Position numbers and translations under genes: made by a program. A DNA stretch of 64,000 bases from Isurus oxyrinchus (Eukaryota). Each line of letters opens with the position of its first letter. Position 1 is the first letter of the stretch. Positions 2,021 to 59,822 of the stretch are shown here, piece after piece. Below the pieces are notes generated by a model. That model was not told where the DNA came from. It ran no database searches and saw only the letters and a program-made list of their open reading frames with translations. The stretch lies in assembly GCA_026770705.1 (NCBI GenBank), contig JANJGN010000557.1, positions 62,001 to 126,000 on the forward strand. The letters are read 5' to 3'.

Positions 2021-2284
2021 GACTAAACTCACTGAGAGAAAAAGCTGGACACCCAGCACAGGGAGTGAGGGAACAATGAATTTTTGCCGTGTTTGGTGAA
2101 TCGGTTTGCGATGTCCCTTCTCAATCTCTCCTTCCTTGTCTTGACATTAGTTTATTCCCTGGGGCTGTTTAACTCACTGAAAGGTGCCATTTAACCACAA
2201 GTTGTTGTTTGAGGAAGAAACGCTGGGGACAATTTATGAAAAAGTCTCTGTCTTTATCATTTCCATTTAGATGAGGAACTGAAG

Positions 2285-3451
2285 ATGGGAGAGGTCGGTC
2301 TGATATTGATCTTCATCAGCTTGCTGCAAGGTACAAATTCATTACTGATCAGAACTCAGGGAATTGGATTCTTTCCTGGAATGAGGAAGTGAACATTTAA
2401 TTTTAGAGAACAGGGTTAGTGATCACACAGAGAGTGAGCGAATAGCGAGTCAGAGAATTTAGCAAAAGCAAAAGCCTCATACGGACTCGAAACAACAACT
2501 CTGTTTCTCTCTCCACAGATGCTGTCAGACCTGCTGAGTTTTTCCAGCATTTTCTGTTTGTGCATCAGAGAGCTTGTTTCAATAGGAATGACAGTGCATT
2601 TATATAGCCCTTTAATGCAGTAAAACATCCTTATTGCTTCACAGGATTCCCCCACAAGGGGTAACATCCCCTCAGCATCCACCCTGTCAAACCCCCCACC
2701 ACCTCAGAATCTTATATGTTTCAATAAGATCACCTCTCATTCTTCTAAACTCCAATGGATACAGGGCCCAACCTGCTCAACATTTCCTCATAAGACAAAC
2801 CCCCTTCATCCCAGGAATCAGCCCAGTGATCCTCCTCTGAACTGCCTCCAATGCAGAGTCTATCCCTCCCTAAGTAAGGAGACCAGAACTGTACACACTG
2901 CTCCTGATACAATCTCACCAACGCCCTGTGCAGCTGTTGCAAGACTTCCCTCCTTTTATACTCCATCCCTTTGCAATAAAGGCCAACATTCCACTTGCCT
3001 TCCTCATTCTGTGCTGTTCCTGAATGCTGACTTTCTGTGATTCATGTACAAGGACACCCAGATCCCTCTGTACCGCATTCTGCTGCCTCTCTCCATTGAA
3101 GTAATATTCTGCTTTTTGATGTTCAGTCCCCTCCCTCGTTGCCTTTCAGGAGTGACGTCAGAGGGATGGTCTATGAAGGCGCTGCCTCGGAGGGCCATCA
3201 GCAGCTCTTGTGTGGTTATTCCGTGTAGCTTTGACTTTCCTTCCCACTCTTACACAGCACTGCACGGAGCTTGGTATAAATATTGGTATAGATGGAAATA
3301 TACCATCACATACACCAAAGATCCCAATTATGGGGTGGCCACATTCGTGGGACGTGCTAAAATAATTGGGAACTTGGAAGGGAAGAATTGTTTGGTGAGG
3401 ATTGACAGTCTCAGAGCTGAAGACAGTGACGTGTATTACACCCAATTCTAA
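2285..3451 (+). pseudogene. Siglec-type (MAG/CD22-like) gene remnant: leader exon plus truncated V-set exon
   Basis: Leader 2285-2330 MGEVGLILIFISLLQ-G|gtac. V exon from ttcag|3150 reads GVTSEGWSMKALPRRAISSSCVVIPCSFDFP..GAWY..FVGRAKIIGNLEGKNCLVRIDSLRAEDSDVYY, then TQF*. It has the Siglec Cys pattern but ends in strand F, where retroelement sequence begins. Confidence 0.8.
2373..2394 (+). promoter_or_regulatory. Adjacent STAT-type (TTCCTGGAA) and PU.1/ETS (GAGGAAGTGAA) motifs in first intron
   Basis: Sequence ctttcctggaatgaggaagtgaac; motif match only. Confidence 0.35.
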
Positions 3452-3838
3452 ATCTTTTCACCAATTAGTCGTCCTCATGAAGATGTGTTTTCAGCTGAAG
3501 CCGTGGGTAATAATGCAGAGGTTTAAGTTTAACTCCAGAGTAAGGGCCCCGGGTGAGTCCATCGCAACCTATACAGTGAAGTGGAAGCAGGTGACTGAGC
3601 ACTGGGACCTCGGAGACACACTCAATGACATGTTGCGGGGCCGATTGGTTTGTGTCGTTCACCCCAACGCCATTCAGAGCCGTTTACTTGCAGAAGACGA
3701 CATCGATTTGAAGCGCACCATGGAAATAGCGCCAGGCATGGAAAGTGCTGGGAGAGACTGGCGGGATTTACAGGATGTACAACATGGCACCAGTCCTCAG
3801 CTGGGACAGGAAACAACCACCGGGCGTGAGGCTCAAAC

Positions 3839-3873
<35 letters not shown>

Positions 3874-4520
3874 CCGCCAAGCGAGAGACAGTCTCTGCCG
3901 CTCCAGAAACTAAAAGGTTTCGTGGGAGTATTTCAGCAGCAACTCCGAAGTTGGTCTGTTCTCGATGTGGGGGGGAGTGAGCTCGTACCGGACACCTGCA
4001 GGTTCAAGGGAGCAGAATGCCATCACTGCCACAAGAAAGGGGCGGGTAATAAAGCAATGCAGGGTGAAATCGAGACAGCCCATCAGGCAGTGCACCAACA
4101 TGATGGAAGTGAATAATATCACAGAGCCTGAAGCTGCTGATACCGATGTCTATTCCCTGTCCAATGTCACAGTGGTAAAAACTGAACCTATAACCATCAC
4201 AACCCAAGTGAATGGGCAGCCACTAGTAATGGGGCAGATACGGGAGCCTCAGACACAGTGGTGGAAGAGCTCACATTTAAACAGCTAAATGAAGGAACCC
4301 AGACGCTGAATTTAGAGCCAACAATGGATCAGCTGAAGACACACACTGGAGAATCCATACAGGGAAAGGACCTCATCCCAGTACCTGTGTCCTACAGGCA
4401 GCAGACAGCCCAGCTTCCAGTGATCATAGCGACAGGTGAGGGCCCTAGTCTTCTGGGCCGAGACTGGTTCCAGAAAACCAAGCTCAGCTGCTCTGAAATG
4501 TTTCACTGGAGGAGTTGCTG
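3440..4520 (+). mobile_element. Degenerate Ty3/Gypsy LTR-retrotransposon gag-protease remnant
   Basis: Gag-like QRFKFNSRVRAPGESIATY..LNDMLRGRLVC. Zn-knuckle remnants CSRCGG..CRFKGAECHHCHKKG. Protease VNGQPLVM../DTGAS (frameshifted) and GEGPSLLGRDW. Confidence 0.85.
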
Positions 4521-7410: not shown

Positions 7411-7797
7411 GAAACTTACCTGTCAGAAGCCAGTTTATGTTGATGTGAGTCTGAGTCGATGACTGAACCCAGTTGGTAACTTGTTCCATACAAAGCAAGA
7501 ACGTTCATGCCCTTCAATGTTCCTGGATAAACCATTAACAAAGCTGGTGACAGACAATCTCCACATGGTAAACACTGACCGATCAACACATGACATGGCT
7601 GTTAACCCCTAAACCTCAGCGTAAATCAGCTCCCCCTCGAGGTCCCTTGTCCGAAATAAAAGCAACGCACACAATTTGTAAAATAGTAAGTGTCTGGCAG
7701 GAAGGAGGAGCAATGAGAGGAGTAAGGGGTTAGGGGGCGTGCGCTTCACCTGATTTGCCGACATAAGAACCAGCCCCTATGTTTTTGCTATGTTGTG

Positions 7798-8010
7798 TTG
7801 CATCAATATGAACACATATTTGCACAAGGTGAAGGGCGTTGCGGAGGGACTGATAGTTCTCGGCGCCAGACAGTCAATGTCCCAGTGACCTTACTGCTGG
7901 TCCCAGGCCAGTGGGACAGGGAACATCGACACTGCAATATCCAGAAATGGGTGTGATACCACACAGCAACCCGCCCCCGGCTGTCCCCTTCAAGTGTTTC
8001 AGGTATAAGA
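7798..8010 (+). promoter_or_regulatory. Putative hepcidin promoter: C/EBP-type sites, BMP-responsive GGCGCC + SMAD CAGAC, GC box, TATA
   Basis: TTGCATCA ~7799, TTGCACAA ~7820, GGCGCC 7862-7867 followed by AGAC, CCGCCCCC ~7971, TATAAGA 8004-8010 (~70 bp before the ATG). GGCGCC is the known BMP-RE core of mammalian HAMP promoters. Confidence 0.6.
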
Positions 8011-8080: not shown

Positions 8081-11000
8081 ATGGGAAGCTCCCAGATGAA
8101 ATGGCGACTTGTCTTGTTCACTCTGACTTTGCTGCTCTCCCTGCAGCTGAGTCACTTCTTCTCCTTGTCGAGGTTAAGCTAAGAGATGTCCCTCTGGGTG
8201 AGGTGTTTCTTGCACATGACTCTACGTCTACCACCCAGATAGACTGGTCTCTTCCGCAGTTTGATATTATTATGTTCGTGCCTTTAATATTGTCGCCCTC
8301 TATGAATTTAACATCATTTCCTTCTGTCATTTCCCCTGAAATTCTCATTCTTGTTTTCAATCCCTCCTCAGCCACTCCCTATCTCTGTAACCTCCTCCAG
8401 GCCTTACAACCCTCCCTATCTCTGTAACCTCCTCCAGCCCCTACAACCCTCCCTATCTCTGTAACTTCCTCCAGCCCCTACAACCCTCCCTATCTCTGTA
8501 ACCTCCTCCAGCCCCTACTACCCTCCCTATCTCTGTAACTTCCTCCAGCCCCTACAACACTCCCTATCTCTGTAACCTCCTCCAGCCCGTACAACCCTCC
8601 CTATCTCTGTAACCTCCTCCAGCCCCTACAACCCTCCCTATCTCTGTAACCTCCTCCAGCCCCTACAACCCTCCCTATCTCTGTAACATCCTCCAGCCCC
8701 TACAACAATCCCTATCTCTGTAACATCCTACAGTCTCTACAACCCTCCCTATCTCTGTAACCTCCTCCAGTCCCTATAACCCTCCCTATCTCTGTAACCT
8801 CCTCCAGACCCGACAACCCTCCCTATCTATGTAACCTCCTACAGTCCCCACAACACTCCCTATCTCTGTAACCTCCCCCAGGCCCCACAACCCTCACGAT
8901 CACTGTAACCTCCTCCAGACCCTACAACCCTCCCTATCTCTGTAACCTGCTCCAGACCCTACAACCCTCCCTATCTCTGTAACCTGCTCCAGACCCTACA
9001 ACCCTCCCTATCTCTGTAACCTGCTCCAGACCCTACAACCCTCCCTATCTCTGTAAAATCCTCCAGGCCCCACAACCCTCACAATCACTGTAACCTCCTC
9101 CAGCCCCTACAATCCTCCTGAACTCTATAACCTCCTCTCCACACTATAACTCTCCCTATCTCTGTAACCTACTGTGGCCCCTACAGCAGTGTCTATTTTG
9201 GTAACCTCCTCCAGCCTCTACAACCCTCCCTACATCTGTAACCTCCTCCAGCCCTCACAACCACCCCATCTCTGTAACCTCCTACAGCCCCTACACACCT
9301 CCCTACCTCTGTAACCTCCTCCAGCCCCCACAACTCCCCCATCTCTGTAACCTCCTACAGCCTCTACAACCCTCCCTATCTCTGTAACTTCCTACAGCCC
9401 TTACAACCCTCCCTATCTCTGTAACCTCCTACAGCCTCTACAGCCCTCCCTATTTCTGTAACCTCCTCCAGCCCCTACAACCCTCCCTATCTCTGTAACC
9501 TCCTCCAGCCCCTACAACCCTCCCTATTTCTGTAACCTCCTCCAGCCCCTACAACCCTCCCTATCTCTGTAACCTCCTCCAGCCCCTACAACTTTCCCTA
9601 TCTCTGTAACCTCCTACAGCCTCTACAACACTCCCTATCTCTGTAACTTCCTACAGCCCTTACAACCCTCCCTTTCTCTGTAACCTCCTACAGCCTCTAC
9701 AGCCCTCCCTATCTCTGTAACCTCCTCCAACCCCCACAACCCTACCTAAATCACTGGTCTGAGTCTCACTCCAGGGTATTCAGTCCCATAATGTAGATCA
9801 ACGCTCCGTGCTGAGGGAGTGCTGCACTCTCAGAGGGTCAGTAGTGTGGAAGTGTTGCACTATTGGAGGGACAGCACTGAGGGAGTGCTATACTGTCGGA
9901 GGTCAGTACTGAGGGAGTGCTGCTGTGTCGAAGGGTTAGTACTGAAATAGAGCTGCACTGACGGAGGGACAGTACTGAGGGAGCGCAGCACTATCGAAGG
10001 GTTAGTACTGAGGGAGTGCTGCAGTGTCAAAGGGTTAGTACTGAGGGAGCACAACAATGTTGAATGAGACATTAAACTGAGTCCCCCGTCTGCCCTCTCG
10101 GGCGGGTGTGAAAGATCCCACAGCCACTATTTGGAGGAAGAGCAGGGGGTGTTCTCCCCGGTGTCCTGGGACCAATATTTATCCCTCACCCAACATCACC
10201 AAAAACAGATGATCTAGGCCATGATCACATTGCTATTTGTGGGATCTTGCTGTGCACAAATCAGCTGCCACATTTCCTACAGTGTGAGTGCACTTCAAAA
10301 ACATCCTTCAGTGGCTGTGAAATGCTTTGGGATGTGGTGAAAGGCGTTAGAGAAATGCAAGTCTGTCCTCCTCCCCCTCTCTCTCCTGTACCTCTCTCTC
10401 TCTCTCTCCCTCTCCCTCAATCCTCCTCTCACTTTCTCCCTGATAAATTCTTTCTTTTTGCAGGTTGACACTGCTTTAGGTTCTTCGACGATTGAGAAAT
10501 CTGTGGATTCCCCGGACACGGTAGGTGGAAATTCATTCCTTATTTTAAGGTTTCTCCCTGCTCGTTTCTTCCACAGAAAGTTTTCTGATTTCAAGCTGAT
10601 TTCAGTGGCAGTCTGTCTCGGTTATACTCAGGAGGCATGTTTGAAATTGAGCCCCCCCCCCCGCTTATTTTGCAAAGCTGGGAAGAGGCAATTCCAAGGA
10701 AGTGAACATATCCCCACAGGAATTTTAAATGTAACCCACGCCGGGAATAGTGAGAGGGAGACTGATCCAGCCTGGGAGTGGGTTAAAGAGAGGCTGGGAG
10801 TCGAGAGTCGGAGAGAGGGATGGAATGGGGGAGGGAGGGATTGGAAGAGAGAGACAGAGAGTGGGACGGGGAGGGGTGAAAGGGAAAGAACATAGGTGGG
10901 AGAGAGTGACAGAGGGAGAAATTAAAGAAGAGATGCAGAGTGAGGGAAAGTGAAAAGGGAAGAGAGATTGTCCAAGAGAGAGAAATTAACAGGGAAGGGA

Positions 11001-13013
11001 GAGTTACAGAGTGAGCGAAAGGTACAAAAATAGTGTGAGAGAGAGGGAGAGATACAGAGTGGGAGAATGAGACAGGGAGAGAGAGAGGGAGAGAGACAGG
11101 AAAAGGGAGAGAGGAGAGAAAGATTGGGAGAGAGGGCAATTGAGAGGTAGAGTAGGAGAGAGAGAGACAGGGAGAGGAGGAGTGGATGAGAGGAAGAGAG
11201 AGAGAGATATGGAGCAGGAGAACACCTCCTCCGGTCCCGATGTTCCTCCAAAATCTCTGAAATTACTGCATCTCCCGGGTCCCCCTGATTCCCATCGCTC
11301 CATCATTGGCGGCCGTGCCTTCAGCTGCCTGGGGCCCTGAGCTCCGGAATACCCTCCCTTAACCTCTCTGCCTCTCTCTCTTTCTCTCTCTCTCTCCTTT
11401 AAGACGTTCCTTAAAAACTGACATCTTTGACCAAGCTTTTGGTCACCTATCCCTAATATCTCCATATGTGACTCAGTGTTAGACTTCTCTCTGATTTACG
11501 CTCCGGTAATGTGGGCTGGGACATTTTGCAATGTCAGAGGCGCTGTGTAAATGCAAGTTGTGAGTGTTATGTGGAAGGGAGACCCCAGGCGGCAGTCAGT
11601 GCCAGAGACTGGAGTCATTGTGTGCAGACCATATCTAATCTCTCCGAATGCACAATCGGTTTGACTGTCAGCCAAAGCATTTTTGAAATTTGATCCTTCT
11701 AACTGTTTATAACCAGGCCTACATCATACACCGAGAGGCTGGTTAATCAACAGACACCTTAGAGGATCGAGTGAAAGACAAAGAGGACTTGCATTTCTCT
11801 AGCGCCTTCCAACACATCAGGACGTCCCAAAGTGTTTCGCAGACAATCAAGTGCTTTTTTTCTTTCATGTGAGGTCACTGATGTACTGTGGGAAAAGAAT
11901 CAGCCATTGGCGCACAGTAAGATCCCACAGACAGCAGCATGATAATGACCAGCGCGGTCCCAGTACTTGCACTGCAAGAGTCAGTTCAGGGTGTCTGCTC
12001 GATTCTCTGCGACTCTCAGCTCTGAGTTAAAAGGACCACGAGGCGTAATTGAGGAATTACCGAGCTATCGGAGGGTCAGTATTGAGGGTGTGCTGCATTG
12101 TCAGAGGGTCAGTACTGAGGGAGTGCTGCATTGTCAGAGGGTCAGTACTGAGGGAGTGCTGCATTGTCAGAGGGTCAGTCTTGAGGGAGTGTTGCACTGT
12201 CGAAGGGTCAGTACCGGCGGGGGGATGCACAGTCGGAGGGTCAGTACTGAGGGAGTGCTGCATTGTCAGAGGGTCAGTTTTGAGGGAGTGTTGCACAGTC
12301 GGAGGGTCAGTACTGAGGGAGTGTTGCATTGTCAGAGGGTCAGTCTTGAGGGAGTGCTGCACTGTTGGAGGGTCAGTACTGACGATGTGCTGCATTGTCA
12401 GAGTCAGTACTGAGGGGGTGCTGCACTGTTGAAGGCGCTGTCTTTCAGATGAGACATTAAACTGGGGCAACCAATCTGCCCTCTCAGATGGATATAGAGG
12501 ATTCCATGGCCACAATTTAGATGAAGTGCGTCAGGAGTTGGGGGTATGTGTGGAGGGGGTGATGGGGGGTGGATGGGGTGGAGTTATGTCTGCTTTCCTG
12601 GGGCAAACATTTATCCCTCAACTGACATTGGTAAAAAACTGAAAATCGGGGCCATTATCACATTTCTGTTTGTGGGATCTTGCTGTGCGTGAATTGCCTG
12701 CTGCGTTTCCTACATTACAGCGGTGAGCTCACTTCAGAAAAAGTCCTTCCTTCAGCTGTGGAACACTTTGGGCCATCCTGAGGAGGGGAAAGGCGCTATA
12801 GAAATGCGCCATCCTCCTTCCAATGACGCGCCTGATTGAAATGATGCCTTCTTTCTTTCCGGAATGTTCTCACCTATTGTCCTCCTGCTTTTCCAGGGCT
12901 CCTTGCTGCAGCGCCAGAAGAGAATGGGCAGACAGCAGCTCTGCAGATTCTGCTGTAACTGCTGTAATTGGAGAGAACCAAATGAGACTTGTGGTCTCTG
13001 CTGTAGATATTAG
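8081..13013 (+). CDS. HAMP: Hepcidin-like preproprotein, 3 exons (~88 aa if a 1-nt deficit in exon 1 is corrected)
   Basis: Exon 1 8081-8172 signal peptide MGSSQMKWRLVLFTLTLLLSLQLSHFFSL..|gttaag. Exon 2 10464-10520 VDTALGSSTIEKSVDSPDT|gtaggt. Exon 3 12897-13013 GSLLQRQKR-MGRQQLCRFCCNCCNWREPNETCGLCCRY*. Furin site plus the C-CC-CC-C-CC hepcidin cysteine pattern. Confidence 0.88.
8380..9745. repeat. 37-bp minisatellite in HAMP intron 1
   Basis: CTCTGTAACCTCCTCCAGCCCCTACAACCCTCCCTAT, about 36 copies. An inverted short array lies at ~5475-5720. Confidence 0.95.
12065..12430. repeat. 33-bp GAGGGAGTGCTGCACTGTCAGAGGGTCAGTACT array heading a SINE-like element
   Basis: About 11 units. Same family at ~9810-10060, 22785-23115, 33590-33890, 56000-56320. 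Confidence 0.9.
12897..13013 (+). CDS. HAMP: Hepcidin exon 3 (furin site + mature 8-Cys peptide)
   Basis: ttttccag acceptor, phase 0, RQKR|MGRQQLCRFCCNCCNWREPNETCGLCCRY TAG. Confidence 0.93.
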   Translation, partial: GSLLQRQKRMGRQQLCRFCCNCCNWREPNETCGLCCRY

Positions 13014-15364
13014 ACCCTGGCCTCATTCACGCAAGGTCATCCTGCACCATGCCACAGCCTCTCCCCTCCTTATCTACTGCTTAGCAATCTATTTCACACA
13101 GGCCCTGTTCATTAATTCCAACTGAAACTTTACCTGCGTTTTACAGCAGGGAAAGAAGCCATTCGGCCCATCTGCTCCATGCTGGTGTTTCTGCTCCACA
13201 CGAGTCTCCGCCCACCCCTTCTCCATCTCACCCCATCACCATATCCTTCTATTCATTTCTCCCTCGTGTGTTTATCCAGCTTCCCCTTAAATACATCGAC
13301 ACTATTCACCTCACGTGACTGTGTTTGTGTCTGTCTTTATGAGCGTGTGTGTGTGTGTGTGTGTGTGTGTGACTGTCAATATGTGTGTGTCAATGTGAAT
13401 GAGTGAGTGTGTCAGTGTGTCTGTGTGGGTGTGTGTGACTGTGTCAGTGTGTGTCAATGTGAATGAGTGAGTGTGTCAGTGTGTCTGTGTGGGTGTGGGT
13501 GTGTGAGTGTGCAAGTGAATGTGTGAGGAATCTTATGACTAAGTCATTTGAATGGATGTTACTGGGGTTAATGTTAGTTAAAATTCAGAGAGATGTAAAG
13601 CGGGCTCCTGATTTTGCTGCTTTATGCTCCCGGGCACAGATTCACCCCGACAATGTGTTCATGATTCACCATTATCTTGTCGGGACTTTAATTGTAAATA
13701 TTGTGCTTTGTAAAAAAAAATGAATAAACAACTTTTGTCTTCACAAAGTGTCTGGCTTGGTATTTCAGGCTACTTGTCTCCCCGTCACCCTCCCCCCCCA
13801 CCATGCCCCCCACACCAGGGAACAATTGTCCCCCCTTCCTCTGAAGTTCTGGGTAAAGATCAGCTTTGTTCAATGCAAGCTGTTCCGACATCGAGAACGT
13901 TGTTACAAATATCTCACAAAGGGCACACGCCATGATAGCCCACTTTCAACAGATTTTACCAGTTGACCAGGTTGAAAACCTTTTCATAAACCACGACGTA
14001 GGTGTTCAATTCTTGCTGCTGTTTGCTTAATGTTCTCATAACTGCTATAACCTCTCTAGTTCCACTACATAACAACACCAACATAAATAAACAGAAGCAG
14101 GAGTAGGCCTTTTGGCCTCCCAAGCCAGCTTGTCCATTCAATTTGAACCTGGCTCCTGCTGAAAGTTATTTAAGTTGAAGCGATAAAGCCATCAGGTGCA
14201 GGGATTAAAATGTAAGCAAAGGAAAAATAATACTTAGACATGAGATTTAAAATCAGTTTCTGTGAAGAATCATACTGAGGCCATTGCTCTGGATTCCTTC
14301 TTTCCAGAGTGAAGGGTTTAAAACTAGGAGTCACATTTAGCAGCTGCGTTGTCTTCTCTAGTTGACTATTTGGAGGTTGCCTGTAGATGTGAATCAGCAG
14401 GTCAGCAGCTTTGGGGAGTGAGTGAAGGTCCCTTTTATTTACAGGATCTGCCACAGGGTGTGCAGGAATATTCCTGCTGAATTCTCCATCCTTGCATTCA
14501 TGAAGGGTTGGAAACTGGAAGTCATATTCAGCAGCTGCAATGGCCTCTGTAGCCAACTGTCTGGAGGTTGCCTGTACAGGTGGACTCAGCAGGTCAACAG
14601 CTTTGTAGGGCGGGGGGGTGCATGGGTAGTAAAGGTCCCTTTACTTTAAAGGTTCTGCCAGTGCAACACTTGATGATCCTGGGTCAAAATCATGTATCAC
14701 CCTCCCCAACAGCACTGTGGATGTGCCCTATGGAGGTTCCTTGGCTTCGACAAGCAGCCTACCAGCTCTGCTCTCAATTCCTCTTCACACTTGCTTCCTT
14801 CCTCCTCTGGTCTTTACTTTGTTATAGTGTTAGTGTCCGCTCTGCCTTTTTTGTTGCTTTCCCAATTCTTCCCACCAACTCTCTCTGGCTTGATCCTTCT
14901 CTGTGCTCATCTCATTGGTTTGAGTTTCTATCCGTTCATTGACCTGGTGTAATCTGAAACTGGTGCAATCAGGTAGGGATGGGGGGGTTGGCGCTGGCCG
15001 TGGGTGGTGATACACGGCTACCTTTTTACCAAAATTCTTTCACGGGATGTGGACAGCGTTTGTTACCTGTTCCTGACTGAGCCCTGGAGAAGGGGGTGCT
15101 GAGCTGCCTTTTCGAAGTGCTGCAGTTCGCCTGGTTTGACTGGTCTGTGGCGGGTTTTGATATAACTCAGTAGCTTGCTCAGCCATTTCAGGGGCAAGTT
15201 AAGAGTCAACCACATTGCTGTGGGTCAGGAGTCACACGTAGGCCAGAATGGGTAAGGACGGCAGGTTTCCTTCCCCAAAGGGCATTAGTGACCCAGATGG
15301 GTTTTTGCAACAATTGGCCTTAGTTTCATGGTCACCATTACTGAGACTAGCTTCGCATTCCAGA

Positions 15365-26500: not shown

Positions 26501-28514
26501 TGGTGAAAGGCGCTATGGAAATGCGAGACTTGCTTTTGTATTTTGAAAGCAGGTTTCCAAGGATGAGATGGGAACTGAGAGGTAACAACAATCAGCAGCA
26601 ACTTTCCTATTTTCAAACTTGGTGGGGAATGTGTCACTGAGCTGAATACACTTTCACTCCCAGACCCTTGAATTGCCAACACTGGGGTGTGGGTGATTGA
26701 GCAGCCCACAGCTCATGGAACCCTGGCTCATCATTCTCTCAGAGATCTGGGTCACTGATCCCATTGCCCTCTGTGGGAGCTTCCTGTGCACAAACTCACT
26801 GCCACGTTAGACAGTGACTATACTTCAAGAATTTCTTCATTGTCTGTGAAATGATTTGAAGTTTGCTGAGGTGGTGTAAGGCGCTATAGGAATGCACATC
26901 CTTCTTTTGTCAAATTGTTAGACATTTCAAAAGCATTAGGGAGACTAATGGGAGTGGATAACCTGATAACATTGATGGACACAGTCAATATATTTAATCA
27001 TTGATATTAAAGTGAGTAATAGAGGTTGCTTTAGGACTGAATTGGAAGTTATCACCCGGTTATTGAGAATCAGACAGTCTGTTATAATAAACTGTATTTT
27101 GTGTTAATATGCAAACGTCACAGTTTGTGTTATTTCCCATTGAGTGTTGTATGTGAATTGTTGAGTAATTATAACACAGCACTTACCAGAAACGTGAAGC
27201 CGGGTTACAGGGTAATAGTTATGGCTCGGACCATTGTCAAATTCTATTCTGAAAAAATAAGGTCCCGCATCTTCCCATCTGATGCTGTTTATAATCAGGG
27301 AACAGTCGCCATCTTTCAGGTCTCCAGACAGCCGGGTCCGATGGCGGAACCGTGGTAACTCGTGACTGTGATCCTTGGAGTGAAAGGCAATGGGAGCCCG
27401 CAATTTGTATTTCTTAATATTTAACCAGATTCCGACTTGTCGTTTGTTTTCAAAATATGCTGGATAACTGTAATGACATGGAATCTGTACACACGAACCT
27501 TCCTGCGCTGTCACCTCTCGTGGAGTGTCACCTTTCCACTCTTGTAACAGTCCAACTGGGGAGAGAAATATCAATATTTAACCCTGGATCCTCATTGTTT
27601 AAGGAATCTCTGGATCTTCATTGTTTAATGAATCTCTTTGGATCCTCATTGTCTAAGGGATTATTTCTGATCCAAACCCCATATTGTTGTATTGTTGATT
27701 CCGATGCAGCATTGTAGACTGACTTGTCCCCAAGCTCAGCACTGACCCTACTCCAGCAGACACTGTGAAACACACTAACAAAGCGCCTCTAGCCTGAGCT
27801 CTGCATGTGTCGAGAGAAAGACAAATATACAAACTGAATATTGACCCCTTTACACACAGACAGCTTTACCTTCCTTCTCTCTTTCAGTTATCTTGCTCCC
27901 TTATTGAAGTTTCTAGCAAGGTGAGAATGGACAGGAAGTGTGACACTGAACAGCCTGTCTATTCTAGGAGCTGCTGTGTTGTCTTCATGGGAAATTCTGA
28001 CTAAAATCAGCAAAAGACACTAATTTCAGGCCATTGCTGTCAGAGTCCTAGCCACAAGATAGACTTCATCCCCTGAATTTTGTGTCCAATTTTATACTCA
28101 AACTTTCACCTCCGCACACACCCACCCCGACCCCACAAGTCACTCGCTGACCTACACTGGCTCCCAGTCCAACAACACCTCGATGTGATTATTTTCACAC
28201 TTGATTTCCAATCCCTCCATCCCTCCGCTCCACTCCCTGTCTCTGTAACCTCCTCCAAACCTACAACCCTCTGTGATCTCTGCACTCCTCCAATTCTGCT
28301 GTCAGACAGGGAGTCAGTGTATATCAGTGAGCACAGGGGTGATGGGTGAATGGGACTTGGTGTGAGTTTGTACACTGGCTCACTGCTGAATCAGTTGCCA
28401 ATCACAGCTCAATAAGAATGATCTTTTACGAAGACTATTAACCATCAATTTGCCCGAGCTGACGATGATATTACCTTGGAGAAGTGACAGGAGGCAGTAA
28501 TATTTCCCGATCAT
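20521..28514 (-). CDS. Siglec-like receptor copy A: leader-V-C2-C2-TM(Arg)-short tail, 375 aa, activating type
   Basis: Exons 28514-28475 (MIGKYYCLLSLLQ), 27555-27187 (V-set, SCVQIPC..DCSL..YFFRIE), 25872-25576 (C2), 22646-22365 (C2), 20660-20521 (YSGGEILHMILILGIRAVIFLVAVVITIAGVCVWERQTVKGSRQTV*). All introns are GT-AG, phase 1, and the frame is intact. Confidence 0.9.
23120..25390 (+). mobile_element. Degenerate CR1 LINE ORF2 (EN/RT) in intron of copy A, with nested TG..CA element and SINE
   Basis: VPEDWRMANVVPLLKKGGRDRSGNYRPVSLTSVVGK; QHGFVKGRSCLTNL; SGVPQGSVLG. Nested insert ~23158-23673. Confidence 0.9.
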
Positions 28515-37300: not shown

Positions 37301-39260
37301 AGAATTGCTTTTGTATTTTGAAAGCAGGTTTCCAAGGATGAGATGGGAACTGAGAGGTCACAACAATCAGCAGCAACTTTCCTATTTTCAAACTTGGTGG
37401 GGAATGTGTCACTGAGCTGAATACACTTTCACTCCCAGACCCTTGAATTGCCAACACTGGGGTGTGGGTGATGGAGCAGTCCACAGCTCATGGAACCCTG
37501 GCTCATCATTCTCTCAGAGATCTGGGTCACTGATCCCATTGCTCTCTGTGGGATCTTCCTGTGCACAAACTCACTGCCACGTTAGTCACTATACTTCAAG
37601 AATTTCTTCATTGTCTGTGAAATGATTTGAAGTTTGCTGAGGTGGTGTAAGGCGCTATAGGAATGCACATCCTTCTTTTGTCAAATTGTTAGACATTTAA
37701 AAAGCATTAGGTAGACTGATGGGAGTGGATAACCTGATAACATTGATGGACACAGTCAATACATTTAATCATTGATATTAAAGTGAGTATTAGAGGTTGC
37801 TTAAGGACTGAACTGGAAGCTATCACCAGGTTATTGAGAATCAGACGGTCTGTTATAATAAACTGTGTTTTGTGTTAATGTGTAAACATCACAGTTTGTG
37901 TTATTTCCCATTGAGTGTTGAATGTGAATTGTTGAGTAATTATAACACAGCACTTACCAGAAATGTGAAGCTGGGTTACAGGGTAATAGTTATGGCTCGG
38001 ACCATTGTCAAATTCTATTCTGAAATAATAAGGTCCTGCATCTTCCCGTCTGATGTTGTTTATAATCAGGGAACAGTCGCCATCTTTCAGGTCTCCAGAC
38101 AGCCGGGTCCGATGGTGGAACCGTGGTAACTCGTGACTGTGATCCTTGGAGTGAAAGGCAATGGGAGGCCAGAATTTGTATTTCTCATTATTTAACCAGA
38201 TTCCGACTTGTCGTTTGTTTTCAAAATATGCTGGATAACTGTAGTGACACCGCATCTGTACACACGAACCTTCCTGCGCTGTCACCTCTCGTGGAGTGTC
38301 ACCTTTCCACTCTTGTGACAGTCCAACTGGGGAGAGAAATATCAATATTTAACCCTGGATCCTCATTGTCTAAGGAATCTCTTTGGATCCTCATTGTCTA
38401 GGGGATTATTTCTGATCCAAACCCCATATTGTTGTATTGTTGATTCCGATGCAGCATTGTAGACTGACTTGTCCCCAAGCTCAGCACTGACCCTACTCCA
38501 GCAGACACTGTGAAACACACTAACAAAGCGCCTCTAGCTTGAGCTCTGCCTGTGTCAAGAGCAAAGACAAATATACAAATTGAATATTGACCCCTTTACA
38601 CACGGACAGCTTTACCTTCCTTCTCTCTTTCAGTTATCTTGCTCCCTTATTGAAGTTTCTAGCAAGGTGAGAATGGACAGGAAGTGTGACACTGAACAGC
38701 CTGTCTATTCTAGGAGCTGCTGTGTTGTCTTCATGGGAAATTCTGACTAAAATCAGCAAAAGACACTAATTTCAGGCCATTGCTGTCAGAGTCCTAGCCA
38801 CAAGATAGACTTCATCCCCTGAATTTTGTGTCCAATTTTATACTCAAACTTTCACCTCCGCACACATCCACCCCGACCCCACAAGTCACTCGCTGACCTA
38901 CACTGGCTCCCAGTCCAGCAACGCCTTGATGTGATTATTTTCACACTTGATTTCCAATCCCTCCATCACTCCGCTCCACTCCCTGTCTCTGTAACCTCCT
39001 CCAAACCTACAACCTTCTGTGATCTCTGCACTCCTCCAATTCTGCTGTCAGACAGGGAGTCAGTGTATATCAGTGAGCAAAGGGGTGATGGGTGAATGGG
39101 ACTTGGTGTGAGTTTGTACACTGGCTCACTGCTGAATCAGTTCCCAATCAGAGCTCAATAAGAATGATCTTTTACGAAGACTATTAACCATAAATCTATC
39201 TGAGCTGACGATGATATTACCTTGGAGAAGTGACAGGAGGCAGTAATATTTCCCGATCAT
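31327..39260 (-). CDS. Siglec-like receptor copy B: leader-V-C2-C2-TM(Arg)-short tail, 375 aa, activating type
   Basis: Exons 39260-39221, 38326-37958 (YYFRIE), 36646-36350, 33451-33170, 31466-31327 (ILHVILILGIRAVIF..). Intact; a ~10.8-kb duplicate of unit A. Confidence 0.9.
33895..36170 (+). mobile_element. CR1 LINE ORF2 remnant in intron of copy B (duplicated with unit)
   Basis: Near-identical to 23120-25390. Confidence 0.9.
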
Positions 39261-45000: not shown

Positions 45001-46650
45001 GTATCAGTGGAGAGGAAGACAGGGTTAACGTTTCGAGTCCGTATGACTCTTCATCAGACCAGAGGTTTGAGTTCACTGGCTTCTCATTTCCTCAGTGATC
45101 TGGGTGATTTATCACCTTGTGGTTTGTTGGATCTTGCTGTGCACAATCTGCCTGCTGTGTTTTACATCTGTGACTACAATTCAGGAATAATTTCATTGGC
45201 TGTGAAGGGATTTGGATCCTCCTGAGGTGGTAAATTGCGCTGCAGAAATGCACATCTTTCTTTTATCGATACGTCAGACTTTTAAACAGGACAGGAGAGA
45301 TTGATGGGAATGGATAACCTGATAATACAGTTAATGCTTTTCATCATTGATATTAAAGTGAGTATTAGAGGTTGCTTTAGGACTGAACTGGAAGCTATCA
45401 CCAGGTTATTGAGAATCAGACAGTGTGTCTGATGTGTAAGCTGTGTTTTGTGTTAATATGTAAACGTCACAGTTTGTGTTATTTCCCATCAAGTGTTGAA
45501 TGTGAATTGTTGAGTAATTATAACACAGCACTTACCAGAAATGTGAAGCTGGGTTACAGGGTAATAGTTATGGCTCGGACCATTGTCAAATTCTATTCTG
45601 AAAAAATAAGGTCCCGCATCTTCCCGTCTGAAGTTATTTATAATCAGGGAACAGTCGCCATCTTTCAGGTCTCCTGACAGCCGGGTCCGATGGTGGAATC
45701 TTTGATCCCTGTGACTGTGACCTTCGGAGTGAAAGGCTATAGACCATTTAGGCTGTGGATTCACATCTATTCCTTTCAACCAGATTCTGACACGCGATCT
45801 CCCTACTAAATTTGATGAGTAACTGTAATGACATGGAATCTGTACACACGAGCCTTCCTGTGCTGCAACCTCTCGTGGAGTGTCGCCTTTCCACTCTTGT
45901 GACAGTCCAACTGGGGAGAGAAATATCAATATTTAACTCTGGATAGTTTGTAGATCCACTAGACTCGATATCCACTCCCTCCATCACTGGGGCACAGTGG
46001 CTGCAGTGTGGACCATCTACAGGACACACAAGGAACTCCCCAAGGTTTCACAATGGATGGAAGAGATTCCTGGACACAGGAGTGGACAAGTTCATTCTAC
46101 ATTTGCTCATGGTCCTCAGGACCCTGTTTAGTGAAGCCAGTCTTCCACCCAACACAGTGTCTACAAGATACACAGGGAAACTGTGTAAACATCTCATCTC
46201 TCTACACTGACTGGCTTGGCTTCGGTTTAACTTTCAGTTATTTTACTTCCTTATTGTGGTTGCTATGGTGAAACTGTGCAGGAAGTGTGAGGGCTGGACT
46301 CTCTGTCTATTCTCACTGCAGCTGTGATGTGGTCGTGGTGATTGTCAGTAAAATGAATCCCTCTGATCTCCTCCATCCCCGAGGTTTAGCGAGTGAATTC
46401 CAGAGCTCAGGCCCCAGGCAGCTGAAGGCCCGGCCGCCAGTATTGGAGTGATGGGAATCGGGGGATGGTCAAGAGGCCGGAATTGGACTAACACAGAGAT
46501 CTGGGAAGTTGTTTGGGTGAGTTGCAGGAGGTTACAGAGATAAAGAGATAAGAATGATCTTTTACAAAGACTGTTAAACATAAATCTATCCGAGCTGATG
46601 ATGATATTACCTTGGAGAAGTGACAAGAGAAAGTAAGATTTCCCGATCAT
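42091..46650 (-). CDS. Siglec-like receptor copy C: leader-V-C2-TM(Arg); second C2 exon half-deleted
   Basis: Exons 46650-46611 (MIGKSYFLLSLLQ), 45910-45536 (V), 44673-44377 (C2), 42230-42091 (TM Arg). The C2b remnant 43902-~44054 lacks its 5' half and acceptor; skipping it keeps the frame. Confidence 0.78.
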
Positions 46651-56862: not shown

Positions 56863-59822
56863 ACTGTCGGGGGGTCAGTAGGAAGTTGCTCTGCAATGTC
56901 AGAGGTGAATTTTTATCAATAAAAGCAGATGATCTGTTGTTAAACAAACTGTATTTTATGGGTTTTTGCTGTGAAACATGTGGACTATAATGGCCAATGT
57001 AGAATGAAGGTCGTCCGTACTTACCTTGCACAGTGAGTACGAGGGTCCGCTCCGATGAAACAGATGGATATCTCACTCTGCAGCTGAGAGTGTGTCCGTG
57101 GTGTTTGAGTGATGGGATCAGGGTCAGAACAGAAGTATAGGTCAGAGTGACACCATGCTGAGTTACAGTGTTTGAGACTGATCCAGGTACGTCAGTGGGA
57201 GTGTCCCAGGTTAAGACAGGTGCTGCTGTTCCATTGCACGTTGTGTTGAAGGTGCAGCTTACATCCACACGCTTTCCTGCAATAATTTCAGCAGGGAATA
57301 TCGTGGGTTTATCTGTGAAATCTAACAGACAGGGAATGGATCCTTTTAGAGAAATATAACGTGAAGAATCAGTTCAAATAGAAACCACAGTCCCACAAGA
57401 GAAAGCACTTTTACAAGGATGATATCAGAACTGAGAGGTTACAATGATCAGGAAAGATTTTCTTGCTCTTTGGCAGTAGTGTTTCTGTCTCTCAGCTTAA
57501 TACACGTTCACTCCGAGACATGTGAATTGAGAACACTGGATGAGAGAAGAGGCTCAGACCAGAGATTGGAGTTAAAAGCAGAATACTGTGGATGCTGGAA
57601 ATCTGAAACAAAAACAAAAATTGCTGGAAAGACTCAGCAGGTCTGACAGTATCAGTGGAGAGGAAGACAGGGTTAACGTTTCGAGTCCGTATGACTCTTC
57701 ATCAGACCAGAGGTTTGAGTTCACTGGCTTCTCATTTCCTCAGTGATCTGGGTGATTTATTACATTGTGGTTTGCTGGATCTTGCTGTGCACAAACTGCC
57801 TGCTGTGTTTAACATCTGTGACCACAATTCAGGAATAATTTCATTGGCTGTGAAGGGATTTGGATCCACCTGAGGTGGTAAATTGCGCAGCAGAAATGCA
57901 CATCTTTCTTTTATCGATACGTCAGACTTTTAAACAGGACAGGAGAGATTGATGGGAATGGATAACCTGATAATACAGTTAATGCTTTTCATCATCGATA
58001 GTAAAGTGAGTATTAGAGGTTGCTTTAGGACTGAACTGGAAGCTATCAGCAGGTTATTGAGAATCAGACAGTGTGTTATAATAAACTGGGTTTTGTGTTA
58101 ATATATAAACGTCACAGTTTGTGTTATTTCCCATTGAGAGTTGAAAGTGAATTGTTGAGTAATTATAACACAGCACTTACCAGAAACGTGAAGCTGGGTT
58201 ACAGGATAGTAGCTGTATTTATTTCTGCTGTCAAATTCTATTCTGAAAAAATAAGGTCCTGCATCTTCCCGTCTGATGTTGTTTATAATCAGGGAACAGT
58301 CGCCATCTTTCAGGTCTCCAGACAGCCGGGTCCGATGGTGGAACCGTGGTAACTCGTGACTGTGATCCTTGGAGTGAAAGGCTATAGACGATGTTCTCCA
58401 TTCCTCATTATTAAACCAGACTCCAACTCGTGGTTGCTTTTCCAAATGTGATGGATAACTGTAATGACATGGAATCTGTACACACGAACCTTCCTGCGCT
58501 GTCACCTCTCGTGGAGTGTCACCTTTCCACTCTTGTGACAGTCCAACTGTGGAGAGAAATATCAATACTTAATTCTGGATGTTTTTTCGATCCACTAGAC
58601 TTGATATCCAACCCCTCCATCACTGGGGCACATTGGCTGCAGTGTGGACCATCTACAGGACACACAAGGAACTCCCCAAGGTTTCACAATGGATGGAAGA
58701 GAATCCTGGATACGGGAGTGGACAAGTTCATTCTACATTGGCTCATGGTCCTCAGGACCCTGTTTAGCTTTTTTTCAAATTATTCATTCATGGAATTTAT
58801 TGCCCATCCCATGTCCATCAGAGGTATTTAAGAGTCAACCACATTGCTGTGGGTTTGGAGTGACATGTAGGCCAGACTGGGTAAGGGTGGCAGATTTCCT
58901 TCCCTATAGGTGATCAGTGAACCAGGCTTTTTAATCCCATTCATCTGCTGTGATAGGATTCACACCCAGGGCCCCAGAGCATCACCCTGGGCCTCTGGAA
59001 TACTCGCCCAGTGACAATACCTCTCTGCTACCGCTTCCCCTTAGTGAAGCCAGTCTTCCACTCAGAACTCCCCCCATTATCACCGTCATGAATCACTAAT
59101 TAGCCTAACATTCCTGTCTGCTCTTCAACACAGCTGATTGGTTAATCTGATTCAATCTGATTGGTGTTCATTCCCTCTTCAATGTTTAAGGAATCACCAA
59201 TCACTCGGCCTCTAGTTATTCTCCTGCCCACAAGAGGGAACATTCTCTGTCTACCCAGTCAATCAAAACCTTTCATCTAAACCTAGTGGTGCTTGAGTAT
59301 ATAGTCGGGAATCCAGGGCAATGGAGCCTCAGGAGAAGAGATGGAAACCCTGTGAGGTGGAACGTCACTGAGGCCATCCGAGTTGAAGCGACTTTTGGAG
59401 AGAATTCCAAGGCAAGATCTTCGAAGTTGAAGATTGGAATCCCTCATGAGAGAAACAGAGTTTCAGTGAGATTGGTTGACTGACAGTGTTCACTGATGTC
59501 CGGGTGGGTTGTTGTGAAATCCATGGGCTCTATCTTGGTTGCGTTTACAATTTAATGAGTAATGTGGCTGTGAGACCACAGTTTGCCTGTTAATTCACAT
59601 GAGCTCATATTAATCCAGAATGTTAGGGTATAAGGTGGATATTGTGAATTATTTTATCTTTCTGAGCTGGTAAAGTTTATTTTTGTTTGTTTAAAAGCCA
59701 TGGAATCTTGTAGCTTTATTCTCTTCGCAAGCATCTTAAATCTCAAACCTCGTCTACTTGAAACAAAATATTATTGGTTCCTAACTGTAAATTATCAAAA
59801 AAAATTGGGTGTCTCTTCCTCC

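Follow-up and report, generated by a model that had tools for sequence, protein, structure and literature searches.

A roughly 90-copy, transcribed array of type 2-like hepcidin genes interleaved with Siglec-like exons in the shark Isurus oxyrinchus

A hepcidin-like exon in a window of 64,000 nucleotides of Isurus oxyrinchus DNA (GenBank assembly GCA_026770705.1, contig JANJGN010000557.1, positions 62,001 to 126,000; the whole stretch that was analyzed) raises the question of whether it belongs to a working gene and what a hepcidin of this kind could do beside the iron hormone. Translation of positions 12897 to 13013 (plus strand) gave GSLLQRQKR, a 29-residue peptide, and a stop, with the RQKR site at 12912 to 12923 and the mature peptide encoded at 12924 to 13010. 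An earlier note, made from the sequence of the window, had called this a hepcidin with all eight cysteines kept, and both points held: the translation carries the eight Cys in the pattern C-x2-CC-x-CC-loop-C-G-x-CC, and the exon scored 31.6 bits against the Pfam Hepcidin model (PF06446; cut-off 27, E = 2e-07), whereas an off-frame control translation gave no score with that model. The best and only PDB match of the peptide was the fish hepcidin 1s6w, with shared CRFCCNCC (E = 0.26). A protein search with the window reading frame alone returned no candidate, and the AlphaFold2 model of the peptide had a mean pLDDT of 49. The exon is genuine hepcidin.

The gene has three exons, with both introns in phase 0, and encodes an 88-residue precursor on the plus strand. 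Coding exon 1 (8081 to 8173; 93 nt, 31 codons) specifies a predicted hydrophobic signal peptide and is colinear with Cetorhinus maximus XP_078389754.1; exon 2 (10464 to 10520; 57 nt) contributes 19 codons of propeptide and is bordered by spliced joints on either side in runs X1 and X2; the coding part of exon 3 (12897 to 13013) supplies the end of the propeptide, the RQKR site, the mature peptide, and the stop. This model is backed by the spliced joints 8173/10464 and 10520/12897 and by the Cetorhinus protein, also of 88 residues and identical at 52 of 59 positions over signal and propeptide. The 3' untranslated region (UTR) runs from 13014 to 13747, with AATAAA at 13723 to 13728 and poly(A) behind 13747. 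A TATA-like box, read from the sequence at 8004 to 8010 and similar in the canonical genes described below, presumably serves as a promoter element. Further upstream, at 7862 to 7871 and 219 nt before the ATG, GGCGCC is followed by AGAC, a putative BMP/SMAD element; GGCGCC occurs only twice in the window, once in this motif.

When exon 3 was compared with its own genome, 92 matches were obtained, of which 89 were array copies (73 to 100% identity), 2 lay on contig C34 (54%), and 1 was a chance match. The 89 copies are spread in mixed orientation over 14 contigs totaling 13.8 Mb, one per 155 kb. Searches with the Pfam model (97 matches) and with a Heptranchias paralog (91 matches) added no further real locus; weak Pfam matches on C126 and C988 were discarded as being without exon-3 similarity, and one on C13 (E = 5.7) as being without the hepcidin pattern. 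Intact copies numbered 43 of 89 and encode 21 distinct mature peptides, preceded by RQKR in 34 copies, RQNR in 7, and HQNR in 2. A second R-x-x-R/K lies three residues downstream in all 86 unshifted copies, so that the mature N terminus may differ from the 29-residue start. Among the defective copies, 36 have TT in place of GT at the intron-1 donor (29 with this lesion alone, 5 also without exon 2, and 2 also missing a Cys), 4 are without exons 1 and 2 in the 8 kb fetched, 3 are frameshifted in exon 3, 2 have a mutated acceptor, and 1 has exon 1 cut by a deletion. The BMP-element-like motif is kept in 32 of the 43 intact copies, the GGCGCC core being lost in the other 11, and in all 36 TT copies. 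In array copies the block around it (window 7733 to 7968) sits about 0.2 kb before the ATG, as against 3.5 and 2.8 kb in the canonical genes (C34 positions 15208402 and 15238581). A partial copy on C557, the contig to which the window belongs (at about 191 to 201 kb), comprises exon 1 and downstream flank with no exon 3 match; thus, hepcidin fragments beyond the 89 exist.

The window copy is itself one of the TT copies. Its intron 1 begins TTAAGC (donor at 8174 to 8175), against GTAAGC in 48 array copies and both C34 genes. Use of the GT one base earlier would leave a 92-nt exon 1 and cause a frameshift that ends translation within exon 2 after 35 residues, and none of the enumerated pairs of GT/GC donors and AG acceptors gave an in-frame product with normal exon ends. 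The shifted joint was absent among the 15 joints listed (there being 222 further). In the available part of PMC6280755, most GT>TT changes are described as disrupting splicing and sites of the G/TTAAG pattern as usable at +1 or -1 in human reporters. At a TT donor, splicing would mostly fail or else move by one base and run into a stop; the window copy is thus probably splice impaired, making little peptide, and is perhaps leaky. Among array copies the TT variant is unlinked to exon 3; it was therefore rejected as a clade marker, and comparisons of exon 3 between GT and TT copies are accordingly weak.

An assembly that holds both haplotypes, or chimeric contigs, could make a small family look large; the copies do lie on 14 small contigs, and the four-gamete patterns reported below could include chimeras. 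Raw reads of a separate sample with the same species label (run X23; 1903.6 million letters) nevertheless contained 93 matching reads, for a mean depth of 27.8x across 12790 to 13130, against a one-copy expectation of 0.383x if the genome is taken to equal the assembly in size (a smaller genome lowers the estimate proportionally), and hence about 73 copies, with many of the same variants. Furthermore, among the 69 copies in which every exon is full length, just one pair was identical over the regions compared, so that 68 of 69 are distinct, and we regard an artifact as very improbable. Run X10, from organism B, yielded one unbranched contig of 471 nt across the exon-3 stretch. The 23-residue core of its peptide from Cys7 on is unchanged, with G2S, R3Q, Q4H, and L6F at the N terminus, and it keeps a 22-nt intron segment that is present in both C34 genes but in only 5 of 89 array copies. 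The paralog thus seems to predate the amplification and to be present in one or a few copies in organism B.

The earlier note had proposed a search for a second, canonical HAMP copy, and two intact canonical genes bearing His3 were found on C34, 31 kb apart. Their mature peptide, MSHLSICMYCCGCCNKKGTKKTCGYCCKL, is identical to that of Cetorhinus at 27 of 29 positions and to the window peptide at only 12 of 29, and its PDB match was human hepcidin. The two genes are flanked by Siglec-like exons, and 105 open reading frames from C34 matched only mobile-element domains. LSR-family exons were not found at C34 15.2 Mb, giving no sign of a wider mammalian-type synteny; four are present elsewhere, at 76.62 and 76.71 Mb of C18 and on C452 and C1620, two of them with identical scores and on small contigs.

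Measured against these and other hepcidins, the features that had been singled out in the window peptide fared unequally. The peptide indeed lacks His at mature position 3, and neither His3 nor the hydrophobic residues 4 and 6 are found in any of the 87 in-frame array copies; nor is the type 1 motif Q-S/I-H-L/I-S/A-L (in the wording of PMC8502971), which both C34 genes have. Net charge is +2 in the window peptide versus +5 in the canonical shark peptide, and the peptides of intact copies range from 0 to +4 (median, +2). The loop from the second CC to Cys6, of 8 residues and with N-E-T in it, was likewise as described, but its supposed atypical length was not upheld, since loops of 8 to 10 residues occur in all five cartilaginous-fish hepcidins retrieved: 8 in Cetorhinus, Mobula, and both Heptranchias proteins, as in the C34 genes, and 10 in Callorhinchus. 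Elsewhere, two frogs have loops of 7 and 10 residues, and sturgeon, a lizard, and two further frogs have loops of 4. The long loop was dropped as a novelty, since all 5 of the chondrichthyan sequences retrieved have it, as do 2 of the 4 frog sequences; judged from database sequences it is normal for cartilaginous fishes, an outcome that the earlier note had itself named as a refutation. The sequon (12981 to 12989; mature positions 20 to 22; a possible N-glycan site) is not distinctive either, as Mobula hepcidin-1 carries N-R-T at that column of the alignment. In the array, 87 of 89 copies carry N-E-T, a frameshift lying upstream of it in the remaining two, and organism B has it as well; the sequon stands 9 residues from the C terminus and adjoins a Cys. 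Sequons near a C terminus and beside a Cys tend to be filled late or incompletely.

Coevolution with shark ferroportin had also been proposed as an explanation of the peptide. Three ferroportin-like genes are present in the genome, and in the ferroportin-1 orthologue (C14, 56.7 Mb) alignment to the human chains showed that C326, Y333, Y501, D504, H507, and F508 are kept. According to the available part of PMC9882908, C326, Y333, Y501, H507, and F508 are contact or metal-site residues, the first six residues of human hepcidin contact ferroportin, and so do the C-terminal carboxylate and the core. With the binding-site residues conserved, coevolution was rejected, and the canonical genes on C34 make it unneeded. 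In a second gene (C14, 74.67 to 74.73 Mb), C326 is replaced by Gly, Y501 by Ser, and H507 by Arg (human numbering); its product, lacking the C-lobe metal and hepcidin site, is predicted to be hepcidin insensitive. The third, a paralog on C3 (138.6 Mb), keeps C326, Y501, and H507.

Transcription was assessed with two runs of organism A, X1 and X2 (a single sample of unrecorded tissue, taken as RNA by an automatic guess). Both runs contained joints at both introns, and depth reached up to 7.8e5 in exon bins versus mostly 1e3 to 1e4 in nonrepeat intron bins. A poly(A) tail follows 24 nt after the start of AATAAA, and X2 showed a 20-nt A tail where the genome is without an A run. X1 contained 0.92 of the sampled words, and 0.35 of the 31-mers of the stretch occur in the C34 genes as well. 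Position 13210 is diagnostic, with T in both C34 genes and in 1 of 89 array copies; T accounted for 17,590 of a depth of 708,759 in X1 (2.5%) and for 54,009 of 249,555 in X2 (22%). By contig depth, a rough measure, array-type alleles thus make up about 78 to 97% of hepcidin depth, and array-type RNA exceeds canonical RNA roughly 40-fold in X1 and 4-fold in X2. The array is transcribed as a family, and its RNA is spliced and polyadenylated; this evidence applies to the family, not copy by copy. Runs X17 (organism A) and X18 (organism B) did not reach the exons, and X21 and X22 gave 0 reads, blanks that carry no weight either way.

How the array peptide diverged from the canonical one is evident from the distribution of changes along the gene. 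Between the window and C34, flanks (intron and near UTR) differ by 7 to 11% and the prepro region by 7 to 8%, whereas the mature region differs by 34.5% (30 of 87 nt, against 23 of 278 in adjacent intron 2; P = 2e-8). By the method of Nei and Gojobori, dN and dS of array versus C34 mature regions were both 0.46 (ratio of 1.0) on only 14.5 synonymous sites, so that the case for positive selection depends on how the region compares with its flanks. Nucleotide diversity within the array was 0.042 in the mature region, 0.017 in noncoding flanks, and 0.005 in the prepro region, and shared variants were found at 16 of 87 mature, 91 of 1189 noncoding (P = 0.002), and 3 of 177 prepro sites. Of 21 distinct mature variants, 19 alter a residue; the changes cluster at mature positions 2, 5, 6, 8, 12, 18, 19, 25, 28, and 29, and the Cys, N15-W16-R17, and N-E-T are almost fixed. 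In these comparisons the mature peptide shows excess amino acid change, while its Cys, W-R, and N-E-T stay fixed. All four gametes occurred at 727 of 990 site pairs, which together with the unlinked donor variant indicates heavy conversion or exchange, and variants shuffled in this way are not independent events. The prepro tree joined array, C34, and Cetorhinus with 98% support; the mature-peptide tree was poorly resolved. A canonical gene may have been duplicated within a lamniform-like lineage, the mature peptide of the new copy being rapidly rewritten; unequal exchange and gene conversion would later have amplified that copy within a cluster of Siglec/CD22-like genes.

The surroundings of the gene bear on how that amplification is read. 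Siglec/CD22/MAG-like genes occupy 22231 to 58535 of the window (minus strand), with V-set, Ig_CD22, and C2-set matches and C-set exons; Siglec-like V exons with domain matches lie at 27215 to 27544, 37986 to 38315, 45564 to 45899, and 58209 to 58535 (minus strand). These V domains are variable in the middle and keep the Arg of a YFFR-type motif, presumably with a role in sialic acid binding, and some of the genes have 10 to 18 tandem C-set exons. A window V exon gave 1034 first-look candidates; the 150 of them that were scored were all on array contigs or C1130. Throughout, the 89 hepcidin copies are interleaved with hundreds of Siglec/CD22-like exons; C557 (397 kb), built of 6- to 12-kb blocks that are 96 to 98% alike, carries 4 copies of hepcidin exon 3 together with about 19 Siglec-type V exons. 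On the plus strand, a divergent immunoglobulin V-set exon (3150 to 3438), part of the amplified cassette, is interrupted at 3438; with its leader exon it spans 2283 to 3438, and a retroelement-like insertion at 3439 to 4520 makes the cut. About 16 uninterrupted copies of this exon exist elsewhere (for example, C557:300011-300277). Among 150 places scored, the interrupted exon matched at 118, of which 102 were the interrupted form or fragments, and it stands 3 to 16 kb upstream of 68 of the 89 hepcidin copies. Cassettes here amplify with broken cargo, and since the interrupted V exon reached a number similar to that of hepcidin, copy number alone is not proof of selection on hepcidin.

The nearest known system is the type 2 hepcidins of spiny-rayed teleosts (HAMP2/hampII of, for example, sea bass, croaker, seahorse, and fugu; PDB 1s6w). 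Like these, the array lacks the iron-regulatory N-terminal motif, is multicopy beside a canonical type 1, and shares the core CRFCC..CG[LIV]CCR[YF]; the diversifying mature peptide of HAMP2 has its counterpart in diversification above noncoding flanks (P = 0.002). Unlike them, the array appears to have arisen from the shark's own gene, as its prepro region (52 of 59 residues identical to the second C34 gene, C34b) and its flanks (7 to 11% apart) derive from shark type 1 and not from the teleost HAMP2 clade; the prepro tree was built without a teleost HAMP2 precursor, and flank similarity could reflect conversion. It further differs from HAMP2 in an 8-residue loop with a fixed sequon, in its Siglec-like setting, and in having 89 copies versus 11 or 8: the largest hepcidin family in the available part of PMC9073008 has 11 genes (fugu), and that of PMC3978493 gives up to eight copies, with HAMP2 only in ray-finned fish; type 2 is described in this literature as confined to teleosts. 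By analogy, then, the array peptide appears HAMP2-like in design but outside the HAMP2 clade. With the type 1 hepcidins of cartilaginous fishes (C34, Cetorhinus XP_078389754.1, Heptranchias XP_067831448.1, Mobula XP_062912710.1, and Callorhinchus V9L3H8), it shares three exons, an 88-residue precursor, 8 Cys, and a loop of 8 to 10 residues, as well as Siglec-like neighbors with the C34 genes and the sequon column with Mobula; unlike the array, these keep an N-terminal x-S/T-H and a net charge of +4 to +6. A second shark hepcidin without His3 is the "hepcidin-like" protein of Heptranchias perlo (XP_067831447.1), which has H-C-R-F-C-C and CGICC like several array variants but differs in having one annotated copy, no sequon, and a loop like that of its own type 1. 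Its prepro region is identical to that of its own type 1 at 58 of 59 positions, so that such paralogs may have arisen repeatedly in sharks; judged from sequence, this protein could have originated independently and in parallel, or it could be an old paralog that conversion has homogenized.

Hepcidin has been detected in nurse-shark plasma (PMC9207270, in the part available). No array-type protein was present in the protein collections searched, hepcidin had 0 occurrences in the open-access shark genome papers found, and neither a shark hepcidin expansion nor a shark type 2 was found in the open-access literature. A roughly 90-copy, transcribed, type 2-like hepcidin array in a shark is thus real and apparently unreported in the open-access literature, with a function that can be proposed as follows.

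We think the chances are a little better than even that, of the approximately 89 copies of this second, His3-less hepcidin, the intact ones supply a host defense peptide that largely spares ferroportin and iron. The product would be secreted by its signal peptide and cleaved by a furin-type protease after RQKR, possibly again after R-M-x-R to leave 26 residues, and would form a four-disulfide hairpin, perhaps N-glycosylated; with the N-terminal ferroportin-docking residues lost, it could be made in large amounts without blocking iron export. Type 2 hepcidins are described as defense peptides without the N-terminal motif in the available part of PMC8502971. The suggestion of an antimicrobial-type hepcidin in the earlier note survives as a type 2-like role, whereas its antimicrobial part is weakened by the net charge near +2, which favors binding, clumping, or endotoxin neutralization over strong membrane lysis; judged from sequence features, low charge and a possible glycan argue against classical killing. 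In the portions available, seahorse type 2 hepcidins agglutinated without killing (PMC9073008), and croaker type 2 peptides with fewer arginines were inactive on bacteria and raised cell iron (PMC6240063). A point against a defense role is that 46 of 89 copies are defective, with one splice lesion in 36.

Those defects, the broken V exon upstream of 68 of 89 copies (the main argument), the excess of Siglec-type V exons over hepcidin (about 19 versus 4 on C557), and the location on array contigs or C1130 of all 150 scored V-exon matches among 1034 candidates would also fit a single functional type 2-like gene caught up in amplification of the Siglec/CD22-like cluster, the extra RNA being a by-product of dosage and the TT allele spreading neutrally or even damping an unwanted dose; the unbranched contig of organism B is consistent with one or few copies there. 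We hold this account, the main rival to a defense role, as a tentative possibility, because variation lies below the noncoding level in the prepro region and above it in the mature region, and because Cys is lost in 0 of 42 full-length GT copies versus 2 of 27 TT copies (small numbers). It explains copy number, not peptide function, and is hence compatible with a defense role. Unlikely, in our judgment, is the more ambitious proposal of an independent shark type 2-like hepcidin in which about 20 glycosylated defense peptides, selected and shuffled by conversion, are functionally linked with the coamplified Siglec-like neighbors; in its boldest form, the N-glycan may be a ligand for Siglec-like receptors or an opsonin tag. 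Slightly more doubtful still is a role in tuning iron export, in which the peptide would act on ferroportin-1, weakly as an agonist or competitively as a decoy, or would serve as ligand of one of the two extra ferroportin-like proteins. The three ferroportin-like genes, the BMP-type element kept in the promoter, the carboxylate and core contacts (PMC9882908, available part), the rise in macrophage iron with a croaker type 2 peptide (PMC6240063, available part), and a very high dose that could compensate for low affinity speak for such a role, but 0 of 87 in-frame copies carry His3 or hydrophobic residues 4 and 6, and the canonical ligand and canonical receptor site are both present in the genome.

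In mammals, the dose of hepcidin is tightly limited because excess blocks iron export. Some 43 intact extra copies that outtranscribe the hormone would be either another, independently evolved way out of that limit, alongside teleost HAMP2, or a case of a gene riding along in an immune-receptor array. Paired shark peptides with the same loop length and prepro region and a different N terminus, together with three ferroportin-like genes, form a natural set for separating hormone from defense-peptide features, and the array itself offers 21 natural variants of a disulfide-rich peptide.
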